From Escherichia coli (lineage in GTDB: Bacteria; Pseudomonadota; Gammaproteobacteria; Enterobacterales; Enterobacteriaceae), in the NCBI RefSeq assembly GCF_022846255.1, contig NZ_AP025682.1: DNA of 64,000 nt, one strand, 5' to 3'. Both the position numbers and the translations under genes were made by a program. The notes under the pieces are model-generated. The model was not told the DNA's origin. It made no database searches and saw nothing but the letters and a program-made list of their open reading frames with translations. Shown here piece by piece: positions 13,744 through 48,674 of this stretch (the stretch's first letter is position 1; each line of letters starts with the position of its first letter).

Positions 13744-16332
13744 GTGACTATTAAATCTACTAATCACCTTACCCACATCGCCACGTTTTGCGCTCTGCTG
13801 TATAGCAATAGTGCTTTATGCGCTGAACTCGTCGAATATGACCATACATTTCTGATGGGAAAGGATGCTTCAAATATCGACCTTAGTCGGTATACAGAAG
13901 GCAACCCGACACTACCTGGCATTTACGATGTCAGTGTGTATGTTAACGATCAACCCATCATGAGCCAAAGCATTGCTTTTACTGTTATTGAAGGTAAAAA
14001 GAACGCTCAGGCCTGCATTACGCAGAAAAATTTATTGCAATTTCATATCAGTTCACCAGACAAGAATAGCGAAAAAGCCATTTTGCTTAAGCGAGACGAC
14101 GATCTTGGTGATTGCCTCAATCTGGCTGAAATGATCCCTCAATCATCCATTCGTTACGATGTTAACGATCAACGCCTGGATATCGACGTCCCCCAGGCAT
14201 GGATTATGAAGAATTATCAAAACTATGTTGATCCCTCTTTGTGGGAAAATGGCATTAATGCAGCCATGCTTTCCTACAACCTCAACGGATATCACAGTGA
14301 AAGTCCAGGCAGAACAAATGACAGTATCTACGCGGCATTCAACGGTGGGATAAACTTAGGTGCCTGGCGGTTACGTGCCTCGGGTAACTACAACTGGATG
14401 ACCAATGTCCATAGCGATTACGATTTTCAGAATCGCTATTTACAACGCGATCTTGCGTCACTACGTTCACAACTGGTTATTGGTGAATCTTACACAACCG
14501 GCGAAACCTTCGATTCAGTCAGTATTCGCGGTATTCGTTTATACAGTGACAGTCGAATGCTGCCTCCGGTATTAGCCAGTTTTGCGCCAATCATTCATGG
14601 CGTAGCGAATACCAATGCCAAAGTAACCGTTATGCAAAATGGTTATAAGATCTATGAAACGACGGTGCCGCCAGGAGCTTTTACCATTGACGATCTTAGC
14701 CCATCAGGTTATGGCAGCGATCTCATTGTGACTATCGAAGAAGCTGATGGCACAAAACGGACGTTCTCCCAGCCATTTTCATCTGTTGTGCAAATGCTGC
14801 GCCCTGGCGTTGGTCGCTGGGATATTAGCGCCGGTCAGGTTTTAAAAGACAGTATCCAGGATGAGCCTAATTTATTTCAAGCCAGCTACTACTATGGTTT
14901 GAATAACTACCTGACAGGATATACCGGTATTCAGCTAACTGATAATAACTATACCGCCGGATTGCTGGGGCTTGGTATGAATACCCCCGTGGGGGCTTTT
15001 TCTGTCGATGTTACTCACTCAAATGTCAGCATTCCGGATGATAAAACCTATCAAGGACAAAGCTACCGTATTTCCTGGAACAAGTTATTTGAAAATACCA
15101 GTACATCATTAAATATCGCGGCCTATCGCTACTCCACCCAGCATTATCTGGGCCTCAATGATGCGCTGACGCTGATTGATGAAGTAGAACATCCTGAGCA
15201 AGATCTTGAGCCTAAATCCATGCGCAATTACTCGCGCATGAAAAATCAGGTCACGGTCAGTATCAACCAACCGCTGAAATTTGAGAAAAAGGATTACGGT
15301 TCATTTTATCTCTCGGGAAGCTGGTCAGATTACTGGGCCTCCGGGCAAAACAGTACTAATTACTCTATTGGTTATAGCAATAGTGCGTCCTGGGGCAGTT
15401 ACAGTATCAGTGCTCAACGTTCGTTGAATGAAGATGGTCAAACCGACGATAGCATTTATCTCAGCTTCACGATTCCAATAGAAAATTTACTGGGTACGGA
15501 ACACCGCAGCTCCGGCTTCCAGAGTATTGATACACAATTAAACAGCGACTTTAAGGGTAATAACCAACTCAATATCAGCAGTAGTGGTTACAGCGATACC
15601 AATCGTATCAGCTACAGCGTAAACACGGGTTATATGATGAATAAATCCAGTGATGACCTGAGTTATATCGGCGGTTATGCCAGTTATGAATCGCCGTGGG
15701 GAACGCTGTCAGGTTCAGCCTCAGCAAGCAGTGATAATAGTCGCCAATTCTCACTCAATACTGATGGTGGATTTGTGTTACATAGCGGCGGGCTGACGTT
15801 CAGTAATGACAGTTTTAGTGATTCCGACGCTCTGGCTGTCATTCAGGCGCCAGGAGCAAAAGGCGCTCGTATTAACTACGGAAACAGCACCGTAGACCGC
15901 TGGGGTTATGGTGTGACCAGCGCCCTTTCGCCATACCATGAAAACCGTATCGCACTGGACATTAACGATCTGGAAAACGATGTTGAATTGAAAAGCACCA
16001 GTACTGTCGCCGTCCCGCGCCAGGGAGCCGTCGTCTTTGCTGATTTTGAAACAGTTCAGGGACAATCGGCAATTATGAATATCGTGCGAAGCGATGGTAA
16101 AAATATTCCATTTGCAGCGGATATTTATGATGAACAAAACAATATCATCGGCAACGTAGGTCAGGGTGGTCAGGCCTTTGTTCGCGGTATCGGGCAGGAA
16201 GGAAATATACGAATTACCTGGATTGAAGAGGGCAAACCAGTCAGTTGTTTTGCTCATTACCAACAAAACACGACATCAGAAAAAATAGCACAATCTATTA
16301 TTCTTAACGGGCTTCGTTGTCAGATACAGTAA
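13744..16332 (+). CDS. htrE: Fimbrial outer-membrane usher
   Basis: ORF 13744..16332 (862 aa, GTG start); usher-family sequence with C-terminal ...LNGLRCQIQ; positioned after the chaperone gene. Confidence 0.85.
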   Translation: MTIKSTNHLTHIATFCALLYSNSALCAELVEYDHTFLMGKDASNIDLSRYTEGNPTLPGIYDVSVYVNDQPIMSQSIAFTVIEGKKNAQACITQKNLLQFHISSPDKNSEKAILLKRDDDLGDCLNLAEMIPQSSIRYDVNDQRLDIDVPQAWIMKNYQNYVDPSLWENGINAAMLSYNLNGYHSESPGRTNDSIYAAFNGGINLGAWRLRASGNYNWMTNVHSDYDFQNRYLQRDLASLRSQLVIGESYTTGETFDSVSIRGIRLYSDSRMLPPVLASFAPIIHGVANTNAKVTVMQNGYKIYETTVPPGAFTIDDLSPSGYGSDLIVTIEEADGTKRTFSQPFSSVVQMLRPGVGRWDISAGQVLKDSIQDEPNLFQASYYYGLNNYLTGYTGIQLTDNNYTAGLLGLGMNTPVGAFSVDVTHSNVSIPDDKTYQGQSYRISWNKLFENTSTSLNIAAYRYSTQHYLGLNDALTLIDEVEHPEQDLEPKSMRNYSRMKNQVTVSINQPLKFEKKDYGSFYLSGSWSDYWASGQNSTNYSIGYSNSASWGSYSISAQRSLNEDGQTDDSIYLSFTIPIENLLGTEHRSSGFQSIDTQLNSDFKGNNQLNISSSGYSDTNRISYSVNTGYMMNKSSDDLSYIGGYASYESPWGTLSGSASASSDNSRQFSLNTDGGFVLHSGGLTFSNDSFSDSDALAVIQAPGAKGARINYGNSTVDRWGYGVTSALSPYHENRIALDINDLENDVELKSTSTVAVPRQGAVVFADFETVQGQSAIMNIVRSDGKNIPFAADIYDEQNNIIGNVGQGGQAFVRGIGQEGNIRITWIEEGKPVSCFAHYQQNTTSEKIAQSIILNGLRCQIQ

Positions 16333-43171: not shown

Positions 43172-45835
43172 TTACGCCAGACGCGGGTTAACTTTATCTG
43201 CATCGATGTTGAATTTGGCGATTGCGTCAGCAACCACTTTCTTATCGATTTCGCCACGTTTAGCCAGTTCGCCCAGCGCCGCAACCACGACATAAGAAGC
43301 ATCAACTTCAAAGTGGTGACGCAGGTTCTCACGGCTGTCGGAACGACCGAAGCCATCAGTACCCAGTACGCGGTAGTCGTCAGCCGGTACGTAAGTACGG
43401 ACCTGCTCAGCGAACAGTTTCATATAGTCGGTAGATGCCACTGCCGGAGCGTCGTTCATCACCTGAGCGATATACGGAACGCGCGGAGTTTCCAGCGGGT
43501 GCAGCATGTTCCAGCGTTCACAATCCTGACCATCACGCGCCAGTTCGGTGAAGGAAGTCACGCTATAAACGTCAGAACCTACGCCGAAATCTTTCGCCAG
43601 GATCTCAGCTGCTTCACGGACGTGACGCAGGATAGAACCGGAGCCGAGCAGCTGAACTTTACCTTTGCTACCTTCAATGGTTTCGAGTTTGTAGATACCT
43701 TTACGGATACCTTCCTCAGCACCTTCCGGCATTGCCGGCATGTGGTAGTTTTCGTTCAGCGTAGTGATGTAGTAGTAAACGTTCTCTTGTTTTTCACCGT
43801 ACATACGCTCCAGACCGTCATGCATGATGACAGCAACTTCGTAAGCGTAAGCAGGGTCGTAAGAGATACAGTTCGGGATAGTCAGCGACTGAATGTGGCT
43901 GTGGCCATCTTCGTGCTGCAGACCTTCACCGTTCAGGGTGGTACGACCGGAAGTACCGCCGATCAGGAAGCCACGCGCTTGCTGGTCGCCAGCCGCCCAG
44001 CACAGATCGCCGATACGCTGGAAGCCGAACATCGAGTAATAGATGTAGAACGGAATCATCGGCAGATTGTTGGTGCTGTAAGAGGTCGCCGCTGCCAGCC
44101 AGGAACAACCTGCGCCCAGCTCGTTGATCCCTTCCTGCAGAATCTGACCTTTCTCGTCTTCTTTATAGTAAGCAACCTGCTCGCGGTCCTGCGGGGTGTA
44201 CTGCTGACCGTTCGGGCTGTAAATACCAATCTGACGGAACAGACCTTCCATACCGAAAGTACGCGCTTCGTCGGCGATGATCGGTACCAGACGATCTTTG
44301 ATCGACTTGTTCTTCAGCATTACGTTCAGGGCACGAACGAAAGCGATAGTGGTAGAGATCTCTTTGCTCTGCTCTTCCAGCAGCGCGCCGAAGTCTTGCA
44401 GGCTCGGCAGCTCAAGCTTCTCGGTGAAGTTCGGCTGACGGCTTGGCAGATAACCGTGCAGTTTCTGACGCTGAGCGTGCAGATAGGTATGCTCTTCAGA
44501 ACCTTCCGGGAAGGTGATGTACGGCAGTTTTTCGATATCGGCATCAGACACCGGCACATTGAAACGGTCGCGGATGTGACGCACGCCGTCCATGTTCATT
44601 TTCTTAACCTGGTGCGCGATGTTTTTACCTTCAGCCGCGTCGCCCATGCCGTAACCTTTAATGGTATGAGCAAGGATTACCGTCGCTTTGCCTTTGGTTT
44701 CCTGCGCTTTCTTGAATGCAGCGTAGATTTTCTTCGGATCGTGACCGCCACGGTTCAGCGCCCAGATCTGCTCGTCAGTCCAGTCTGCAACCAGAGCTGC
44801 GGTTTCCGGATATTTACCGAAGAAGTGTTCACGAACGTACGCACCATCTTTCGATTTGAAGGTCTGGTAGTCGCCGTCAACGGTTTCGTTCATCAGCTGG
44901 ATCAGTTTACCGCTGGTATCTTTACGCAGCAGTTCATCCCAACGGCTACCCCACATCACTTTGATCACGTTCCAGCCAGCACCTTCGAAGATGCCTTCCA
45001 GTTCGTTGATGATCTTGCCGTTACCGGTGACCGGGCCGTCAAGACGCTGCAGGTTACAGTTGATAACGAAGACCAGGTTATCCAGTTTTTCACGGGTAGC
45101 GATGGTGATCGCACCTTTGGATTCCGGTTCGTCCATTTCACCGTCGCCGAGGAACGCGTAAACGGTTTGTTTAGAGGTATCTTTCAGGCCACGGTGTTCC
45201 AGATATTTCAGGAACTTAGCCTGGTAAATAGCACCAATCGGACCCAGCCCCATAGATACGGTCGGGAACTGCCAGAATTCCGGCATCAGTTTCGGGTGCG
45301 GATAGGAAGAGAGGCCATTGCCGTGAACTTCCTGACGGAAGTTATCCAGCTGCTCCTGAGTCAGACGACCTTCCAGGAAAGCACGAGCGTAAACGCCTGG
45401 GGAGATGTGGCCCTGGAAGTAAACCAGGTCGCCGCCATCCTGCTCGTTGCGTGCACGGAAGAAGTGGTTAAAGCACACATCATAAATGGTTGCGGAAGAC
45501 TGGAAGGACGCCATGTGGCCGCCCAGTTCGAGGTCTTTTTTCGACGCACGCAGAACCGTCATGATGGCGTTCCAGCGGATAGCTGAACGAATACGGCGTT
45601 CCAGTTCCAGATTACCCGGATACTCCGGTTGTTCTTCAACGGGGATGGTGTTGATGTAGTTGCTGATACCGGTGCCTGCGGCTACGTTGACACCGCCTTT
45701 GCGGGCTTCAGCAAGCAGTTGGTCGATCAGATACTGAGCACGCTCAACACCTTCTTCACGGATGACCGATTCGATCGCCTGGAGCCAGTCGCGAGTTTCG
45801 ATCGGATCCACGTCATTTGGGAAACGTTCTGACAT
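43172..45835 (-). CDS. aceE: Pyruvate dehydrogenase E1 component
   Basis: ORF 43172..45835 (887 aa) [41 protein letters not shown]. Confidence 0.95.
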
Positions 45836-45995: not shown

Positions 45996-46760
45996 CTAAT
46001 TCTTTCGTTGCTCCAGACGACGCAGAGAACGCTCACGGCGGCTCTCTTCACGGCTTCTGTCGAGCAAAATTTCTTCGATAAAGGCCAGATGGCGATGCGA
46101 TGCTTCGCGCGCTTCTTCCGGCTTACCGGCCATAATCGCTTCAAATATACGGGTGCGGTGACTACTCACCAGCGGCAGCATCTCGCGACGCGAATAGAGC
46201 AATTCGAAGTTCTGGCGGACATTCTGGGCCAACATCGGCTCCATACACCTTAGCAGATGAAGCAGAACCACATTGTGGGCCGCTTCGGTGACGGCAATCT
46301 GATACTGGAGTACGGCGTTTGATTCCGCGTCCAGATCGCCAGACTGCTGCGCCAGCTCTATAGCGTGGTGGAGTTCACGGATGCGTTCCTTGTCTTCATC
46401 GGTACTACGCAGCGCGGCGTAATAAGCGGCGATACCTTCCAGGGCGTGTCGTGTTTCGAGCAAGTCATACTGTGATTCAGGATGGTCGGAGAGCAGCTCC
46501 ACCAGCGGATCGCTGAAGCTTTGCCATAGGCTGCTCTGGACAAAAGTGCCGCCACCCTGGCGACGAAGCAACAAGCCCTTCGCTTCGAGACGTTGAATCG
46601 CCTCACGCAATGAGGGACGGGAGACGTCAAACTGTTTTGCCAGTTCGCGTTCCGGTGGGAGTTTTTCGCCCGGGCGGAGAGTGCCTTCGAGGATCAAAAA
46701 CTCCAGTTGCTGCTCAATCACATCGGAGAGTTTTGGTTGGCGGATTTTGCTGTAGGCCAT
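45996..46760 (-). CDS. pdhR: Pyruvate dehydrogenase complex repressor PdhR (GntR/FadR family)
   Basis: Within ORF 45996..46793; ATG 46760 gives [55 protein letters not shown] (254 aa). Confidence 0.92.
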
Positions 46761-46791
46761 GAGTTCCTGTCTTAAGCCACTTGCCGAAGTC

Positions 46792-46808
46792 AATTGGTCT
46801 TACCAATT
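46792..46808. promoter_or_regulatory. PdhR operator (perfect 17-bp palindrome) in the pdhR leader
   Basis: AATTGGTCTTACCAATT at 46792-46808, ~32 bp upstream of the pdhR ATG. Confidence 0.7.
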
Positions 46809-47300
46809 TCATGTCTGTGACGCTAAAGTAACAAAGTATTCACCTTATGTCCATACATGTTTTGATTGAAATCATGAAACTGTGCACATTTTAACAACTT
46901 GACATATATAACGTTTCAAAGTTGTAACTATGCACAAATGTAGACTTTACGTAGGAAAGGGATTTTTTAACGATTATTAAACTATAAAAATCCGAATTGA
47001 ACCGATTCACTTACCAATTTTGTGATTTTTAATTCAATTAAAACGAATTTAAATTCATTCTGCATATTGAGAGGGGTTGAGGCTGAGCTTTACAAACGGT
47101 TTCTTTTTAAGCAACTCATCTTCAACCATGCATAAAGCGGGTGCATTCGCTGTCGCATACCATTATTCTTGATCTGACGGAAGTCTTTTTGTAACAATTC
47201 AAACTTCTTTGATGTAAACAAATTAATACAACAAACGGAATTGCAAACTTACACACGCATCACTGCGTAGATCAAAAAAACAATCACCGCACGAGGTTTC

Positions 47301-48674
47301 ATGATGGAAGGTCAACAGCACGGCGAGCAGCTAAAGCGCGGCCTTAAAAACCGCCATATTCAGCTTATCGCGCTGGGTGGCGCGATAGGGACCGGGTTAT
47401 TCCTGGGTAGCGCCTCCGTAATACAGTCCGCAGGGCCAGGGATTATCCTGGGTTACGCCATTGCTGGTTTTATCGCCTTTCTGATCATGCGTCAGCTGGG
47501 TGAAATGGTGGTCGAAGAACCTGTCGCAGGCTCCTTTAGCCACTTTGCTTATAAATACTGGGGCAGTTTTGCCGGTTTCGCCTCTGGCTGGAACTACTGG
47601 GTACTGTACGTTTTAGTTGCCATGGCAGAGCTGACTGCCGTGGGTAAATACATTCAGTTCTGGTATCCGGAAATCCCAACCTGGGTTTCTGCCGCCGTGT
47701 TCTTTGTGGTGATCAACGCCATCAACCTGACAAACGTAAAAGTGTTTGGCGAGATGGAGTTCTGGTTTGCCATTATCAAAGTTATCGCGGTGGTAGCGAT
47801 GATCATCTTCGGCGCCTGGCTGCTATTCAGCGGCAACGGCGGCCCGCAGGCGAGCGTTAGCAACCTGTGGGATCAGGGTGGTTTCCTGCCACACGGCTTC
47901 ACCGGTCTGGTGATGATGATGGCGATTATCATGTTCTCTTTCGGTGGTCTGGAACTGGTGGGGATCACCGCAGCAGAAGCTGATAACCCGGAGCAAAGTA
48001 TCCCAAAAGCAACTAACCAGGTTATCTACCGCATCCTGATTTTCTATATTGGTTCGTTAGCCGTTCTGCTCTCACTAATGCCGTGGACCCGCGTTACCGC
48101 CGATACCAGTCCGTTTGTGCTGATCTTCCACGAGTTAGGCGATACCTTTGTAGCGAATGCGCTGAATATCGTGGTACTGACTGCTGCGCTCTCCGTGTAC
48201 AACAGCTGCGTATATTGCAACAGCCGTATGCTGTTCGGTCTGGCACAACAAGGGAACGCGCCAAAAGCGCTGGCGTCTGTCGATAAACGCGGCGTACCGG
48301 TTAACACTATTCTGGTGTCTGCGCTGGTTACGGCATTGTGCGTACTGATTAACTACCTTGCCCCAGAGTCCGCTTTCGGACTGTTAATGGCGCTGGTGGT
48401 ATCTGCACTGGTCATCAACTGGGCGATGATCAGTCTGGCGCATATGAAATTCCGTCGTGCCAAACAAGAACAAGGCGTGGTAACTCGCTTCCCTGCCCTG
48501 CTTTATCCGCTGGGTAACTGGATCTGCCTGCTGTTTATGGCGGCGGTACTGGTGATTATGCTGATGACCCCAGGAATGGCGATTTCGGTATACCTGATCC
48601 CGGTATGGCTGATCGTGTTAGGTATCGGCTATCTGTTTAAAGAGAAAACCGCCAAAGCCGTAAAAGCGCATTAA
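47301..48674 (+). CDS. aroP: Aromatic amino acid:H+ symporter (APC family)
   Basis: ORF 47301..48674 (457 aa) MMEGQQHGEQLKRGLKNRHIQLIALGGAIGTGLFLGSASVIQSAGPG; 12-TM permease. Confidence 0.93.
   Translation: MMEGQQHGEQLKRGLKNRHIQLIALGGAIGTGLFLGSASVIQSAGPGIILGYAIAGFIAFLIMRQLGEMVVEEPVAGSFSHFAYKYWGSFAGFASGWNYWVLYVLVAMAELTAVGKYIQFWYPEIPTWVSAAVFFVVINAINLTNVKVFGEMEFWFAIIKVIAVVAMIIFGAWLLFSGNGGPQASVSNLWDQGGFLPHGFTGLVMMMAIIMFSFGGLELVGITAAEADNPEQSIPKATNQVIYRILIFYIGSLAVLLSLMPWTRVTADTSPFVLIFHELGDTFVANALNIVVLTAALSVYNSCVYCNSRMLFGLAQQGNAPKALASVDKRGVPVNTILVSALVTALCVLINYLAPESAFGLLMALVVSALVINWAMISLAHMKFRRAKQEQGVVTRFPALLYPLGNWICLLFMAAVLVIMLMTPGMAISVYLIPVWLIVLGIGYLFKEKTAKAVKAH

Follow-up and report, generated by a model that had tools for sequence, protein, structure and literature searches.

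Immediately upstream of pdhR, the gene for a pyruvate-sensing repressor, the 64,000-nucleotide stretch of Escherichia coli DNA analysed here (referred to throughout as the window) contains a 17 bp inverted repeat. The question raised by this locus is whether the repeat is the operator through which PdhR controls its own gene and the pyruvate dehydrogenase genes aceE, aceF and lpd. A first-pass annotation of the window had proposed such an operator while remaining silent on strand. These four genes all lie on the minus strand (Table 1), the orientation of the aroP/pdhR region being reversed relative to that in K-12; hence the sense-strand reading of the box is AATTGGTAAGACCAATT, the reverse complement of the plus strand letters AATTGGTCTTACCAATT at window positions 46792-46808.

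Table 1. Coordinates of the operator, promoter and genes at the pdhR locus, as positions in the window
Feature	Position	Strand	Details and evidence
PdhR operator (PdhR box)	46792..46808	-	sense strand AATTGGTAAGACCAATT; +11..+27 of pdhR transcript; sequence, consensus, PWM, conservation, published EMSA probe
Promoter-proximal half-site AATTGGT (sense strand)	46802..46808	-	7/7 columns invariant in 81 sequences
Promoter-distal half-site ACCAATT (sense strand)	46792..46798	-	7/7 columns invariant in 81 sequences
Non-symmetric central triplet AAG (GT-AC spacer)	46799..46801	-	variable among species: AAG, CAT, ATG, ATT, CAG
Transcription start of pdhR-aceEF-lpd, an A	46818	-	58 nt before ATG; 5'RACE, Olvera et al. 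2009
pdhR 5' leader, 58 nt, operator inside	46761..46818	-	published start site and sequence
-10 hexamer TACTTT (inferred from spacing to mapped start)	46825..46830	-	block 97% conserved, 81 species
-35 hexamer TGGACA (inferred), 17 nt before -10	46848..46853	-	sequence; conserved
pdhR, GntR/FadR-subfamily pyruvate-sensing repressor, 254 aa	45996..46760	-	NCBIfam NF007001, 495.7 bits; Pfam GntR and FCD
aceE, pyruvate dehydrogenase E1	43172..45835	-	TIGR00759, 1644 bits
aceF, E2, 529 aa	41568..43157	-	NF008814, 974 bits; BLASTP against K-12 AceF
lpd, E3, dihydrolipoyl dehydrogenase	39936..41360	-	TIGR01350, 501 bits; N-terminus MSTEIKTQ starts at 41360
aroP	47301-48674	+	

The regulator itself is readily recognised. 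The score of the pdhR product on the PdhR equivalog model exceeds the 330 bit cut-off of that model, and the protein consists of an N-terminal GntR winged helix (PF00392, 89.6 bits) and a C-terminal FCD domain (PF07729, 62.9 bits). Structures are available for the two domains of E. coli PdhR (PDB 5KVR and 5TPM) and for a more distant PdhR (9JPJ-9JPL). Elsewhere in the operon, AceF is 529 aa in length compared with 630 aa in K-12; the protein lacks one of its three lipoyl domains, the tandem repeats being fused in frame (BLASTP). Only 10 of 5423 complete E. coli genomes contain a match to the junction at 95% identity or above, and the short aceF represents either a rare allele with two lipoyl domains or a repeat that collapsed during assembly.

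The box had been described as a perfect 17 bp palindrome, a claim that has to be amended because the central three bases are asymmetric (CTT on the plus strand, AAG on the minus strand): only the 7 nt arms, AATTGGT and ACCAATT, are exactly complementary, such that 14 of the 17 positions are symmetric and the element is a 7+3+7 inverted repeat. The proposed match to the GntR/FadR-type PdhR box, on the other hand, is borne out by agreement at all 14 specified bases of the consensus AATTGGTnnnACCAATT (core GGTnnnACC), as printed in PMC7660256 and PMC11508082. Exact occurrences of the 14-base consensus AATTGGTNNNACCAATT are expected by chance approximately 0.0002 times per 64 kb window, and the only other match with three or fewer mismatches anywhere in the window is a three-mismatch site at 15366. 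The geometry of the site is likewise appropriate: dimers of the FadR subfamily recognise inverted repeats rich in A/T, whose TKGT and ACMA boxes leave a 3 nt gap from GT to AC (PMC4494728), and the arrangement TTGGT-AAG-ACCAA follows this TKGT-N3-ACMA rule.

A match to a PdhR position weight matrix (PWM), which the annotation had suggested as a check, points in the same direction. A symmetrised matrix was constructed from the 27 other sites in Table 1 of Anzai et al. 2020 (PMC7660256; gSELEX), with the pdhR site left out. The box scored 21.09 of a possible 22.46 bits on this matrix, as against 12.45 bits for the runner-up in the window and 15.62 bits for the highest-scoring position among 20 shuffled windows. 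Across the whole window, the matrix detected no further PdhR sites above the shuffled background, for instance at internal promoters of aceE or lpd.

The position of the box relative to the transcript is similarly consistent with an operator. The annotation had placed it in the pdhR leader, about 32 bp upstream of the start codon. With the ATG at 46760..46758, there are 31 nt between box and ATG, equivalent to an offset of 32 (46792 - 46760), and the transcription start mapped by 5'RACE, an A 58 nt before the ATG preceded by GTATGGACATAAGGTGAATACTTTGTTACTTTAGCGTCA (Olvera et al. 2009; PMC2759082), means that the box spans +11 to +27, so both elements of the description are accurate. A biosensor preprint quotes a distance of 11 bp, matching the box position of +11. 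One secondary source, an engineering paper, instead puts PdhR binding at the -10 region, a placement contradicted by the mapped start. A consensus scan of 46600-47400 found no sigma-70 promoter because the -10 hexamer is too weak, and the -10 and -35 assignments in Table 1 therefore rest on the published start.

Two further observations concern the region around this promoter. The stretch comprising the -35 hexamer, spacer and -10 hexamer is nearly invariant (26 of 29 columns across 81 species), more so than a promoter alone needs. Upstream of it, between 46821 and 46900 on the minus strand, are blocks resembling a CRP site, TGTGCACAGTTTCATGA, and an FNR site, ATGATTTCAATCAA; Crp and Fnr are both named as regulators of the pdhR promoter in published lists (PMC2759082).

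Alignment to the K-12 MG1655 chromosome identified the same element there. All 17 bases are identical to positions 122044-122060 of K-12 (centre 122052), the PdhR site of the K-12 pdhR promoter that RegulonDB and EcoCyc centre at 122052. MG1655 and the window differ at 11 positions over 1357 aligned nt, none of which falls within the box or the core promoter; the distance to the ATG and the flanking promoter are shared as well, such that nothing within the element distinguishes this strain from K-12. The K-12 RefSeq record carries no binding-site feature over the matching stretch. The operator is already known, having been described about thirty years ago: Quail and Guest reportedly identified the PdhR operator of the pdhR-aceEF-lpd promoter in 1995, with a PdhR footprint at +11 to +27.

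Subsequent work has demonstrated binding of PdhR to this sequence directly. The 37 bp gel-shift probe that Göhler et al. 2011 (PMC3265435) named 'PdhRop', GCCGAAGTCAATTGGTCTTACCAATTTCATGTCTGTG, is exactly equal to window positions 46783-46819; it formed a strong complex with purified PdhR, and the site was enriched 11.6-fold in ChIP-qPCR. Anzai et al. 2020 (PMC7660256, Table 1) list the PdhR box AATTGGTaagACCAATT, matching at 14 of 14 bases, at position 122052 between aroP and pdhR. This K-12 site heads their 35 gSELEX peaks, with an intensity of approximately 9,200, and is the only 14/14 box in that table. The peak did not fall in the presence of 1 mM pyruvate (9,889 versus 9,234; PMC7660256), and that assay is therefore not in itself a demonstration of pyruvate release at the pdhR site. 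Other E. coli PdhR boxes, such as those at cyoA, ndh, grcA/yfiD, glcD and lldP, have in common the GGTnnnACC core and A/T-rich extensions, but contain one to three or more mismatches (11-13 of 14 bases matching) and are associated with weaker gSELEX peaks. Given the identity to the K-12 box, the published EMSA probe, the ChIP-qPCR enrichment and the top gSELEX peak, the annotation was right to call this a PdhR operator, and the site is almost certainly the operator through which pdhR-aceEF-lpd is autoregulated in E. coli. The box is the founding example of the PdhR-box family, found here in an E. coli strain other than K-12.

Conservation of the element was assessed in the 80 best-matching pdhR loci of other species, obtained through a scan of a one-genome-per-species collection and representing Escherichia, Salmonella, Citrobacter, Kluyvera, Klebsiella, Raoultella, Enterobacter, Lelliottia, Kosakonia, Pluralibacter, Shimwellia, Serratia and other genera. 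A 14/14 box is present in all 80 of these loci; its distance to the ATG is 30-33 nt in all but two of them, where it is 40 and 48 nt. When the 81 upstream regions (the window and the 80 best-matching loci) were aligned, both 7 nt arms were found to be 100% invariant, and the central triplet 95% conserved, AAG being present in 73 of the 81 sequences and one of the other triplets in Table 1 in the remainder. Conservation amounts to 65% over +1 to +10, 75% over the remainder of the leader and 55% in the distal part of the intergenic region. Within the species, an 801 bp piece around the site was matched in 5423 of 5426 complete E. coli genomes, and an 81 bp piece containing the promoter and operator is 100% identical in 5341 of the 5423.

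Further upstream, the spacer between aroP and pdhR contains several features in its own right. An exact 11 nt direct repeat, CTTACCAATTT, is found at 47010-47020 and 46799-46809; the upstream copy, AAATTGGTAAG on the minus strand (47020..47010), consists of one PdhR half-site plus the spacer and lies 211 bp upstream of the operator, with the other half absent. Among the 80 best-matching loci this copy is confined to Escherichia, and it is missing in USVAST219, an E. coli strain with a variant aroP-pdhR spacer; as a candidate auxiliary PdhR site it was consequently attributed to chance, and the second half-site is probably fortuitous. Adjoining it is a palindromic block, TGAATCGGTTCA (46998-47009, minus strand), approximately 250 nt upstream of pdhR and kept in nearly all of the 80 loci. 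This block resembles the Cra/FruR box, a likeness that would accord with published reports of Cra acting on PdhR targets as well.

The distal part of this spacer (approximately 46900-47300) is polymorphic, with around 1060 of the 5423 complete genomes keeping only the pdhR-proximal 140-190 nt. For instance, upstream of pdhR in USVAST219 there is a block containing a gene for a 'bacteriocin immunity protein', and in one CFT073 assembly an IS3 element ends approximately 140 nt ahead of the pdhR start codon; both retain an intact PdhR box. On the aroP side, TGTAAACAAATTAATACA at 47205-47225 on the plus strand, upstream of aroP, resembles the TyrR box (TGTAAA-N6-TTTACA), an element to be expected at the promoter of aroP.

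Several other readings of the inverted repeat can be weighed against these data. One is that the operator may have a second role in addition to binding PdhR, either as a hairpin in the transcribed leader or in combination with an auxiliary half-site that loops the promoter. This is very improbable: such roles are disfavoured by the absence of covariation, the lack of excess fold stability, and the absence of the second copy both outside Escherichia and in USVAST219. That the repeat might instead act mainly as RNA, forming a 7 bp hairpin with a 3 nt loop that controls mRNA stability or translation, is highly improbable. It does lie inside the transcribed 58 nt leader, and the predicted minimum-energy fold of this leader includes the 7 bp hairpin, but that fold (-11.9 kcal/mol) is no better than those of shuffled sequences (mean -13.6 kcal/mol; z = +0.68). 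Nor was any covariation between the arms detected across the 81 sequences, and the same box functions as an operator after transfer to unrelated promoters (biosensor preprint). Neither leader folding nor the covariation search, then, supports an RNA hairpin; arms that are invariant, with no compensatory changes, are the signature of direct base readout by a protein rather than of an RNA stem.

If a protein reads the arms, it could conceivably be a paralogue within the FadR subfamily (LldR or GlcC, for example) that shares the site with PdhR or is its main user, thereby placing the operon under the control of lactate or glycolate instead of pyruvate. By profile score, the nearest paralogue is LldR (216.6 bits), and the LldR and GlcC boxes resemble that of PdhR. 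Furthermore, the targets of PdhR include the lldP operator, AATTGGccctACCAATT, and the glcD site (PMC7660256), and cross-recognition therefore exists in one direction. Against this, binding of PdhR to the exact box sequence has been shown directly (PMC3265435, PMC7660256), and the three passages mentioning PdhR that a text search retrieved from the LldR gSELEX paper do not name pdhR as a target of LldR. Control through such a paralogue can hence be given hardly any credence. Finally, although 7+3+7 inverted repeats are unremarkable as such, with eight in the window as against approximately four expected, the notion of a functionless chance palindrome is vanishingly improbable, being ruled out by the chance expectation for the exact consensus, the invariance of the arms, the fixed position relative to the ATG and the published binding of PdhR. 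The present analysis found no evidence contradicting the interpretation as a PdhR operator.

The identity, position, matrix score and conservation of this PdhR operator are established here, whereas the binding of PdhR, the start site and the response to pyruvate rest on published experiments. In the mechanism that best explains the locus, a PdhR dimer binds the two inverted half-sites, centred at +19 of the transcript and just downstream of the weak promoter, with predicted hexamers TGGACA-17-TACTTT. At low pyruvate concentrations, the bound repressor would overlap the RNA polymerase footprint at its downstream edge and prevent productive initiation, which is the step that Quail and Guest (1995) are said to have found blocked by PdhR. 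Such repression would lower the expression of pdhR itself plus the co-transcribed pyruvate dehydrogenase genes. Pyruvate, on binding to the C-terminal FCD domain, would lower the affinity of PdhR for DNA and so permit transcription of the operon. Because the operon begins with pdhR, the arrangement is a negative feedback, or autoregulatory, loop.

Published observations accord with parts of this scheme. Both Ppdh reporters and the isolated box, when transplanted into unrelated promoters, give a pyruvate-dependent output (biosensor preprint), and low pyruvate is held to explain the reduced transcription of the operon in slow-growing strains (PMC2759082). FadR and its complex with DNA likewise feature a winged-helix dimer on a TKGT-N3-ACMA inverted repeat and a ligand bound at the C-terminus that lowers affinity for DNA, but the flanking bases differ and the ligand is acyl-CoA rather than pyruvate. 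The relationship between the two proteins is only distant, the pdhR product scoring 37 bits on the FadR model.

The find confirms that a textbook operator is recognisable from raw sequence, and raises no new question. The element sets the level of pyruvate dehydrogenase in E. coli in response to pyruvate, and has found wide reuse as a component of pyruvate biosensors.
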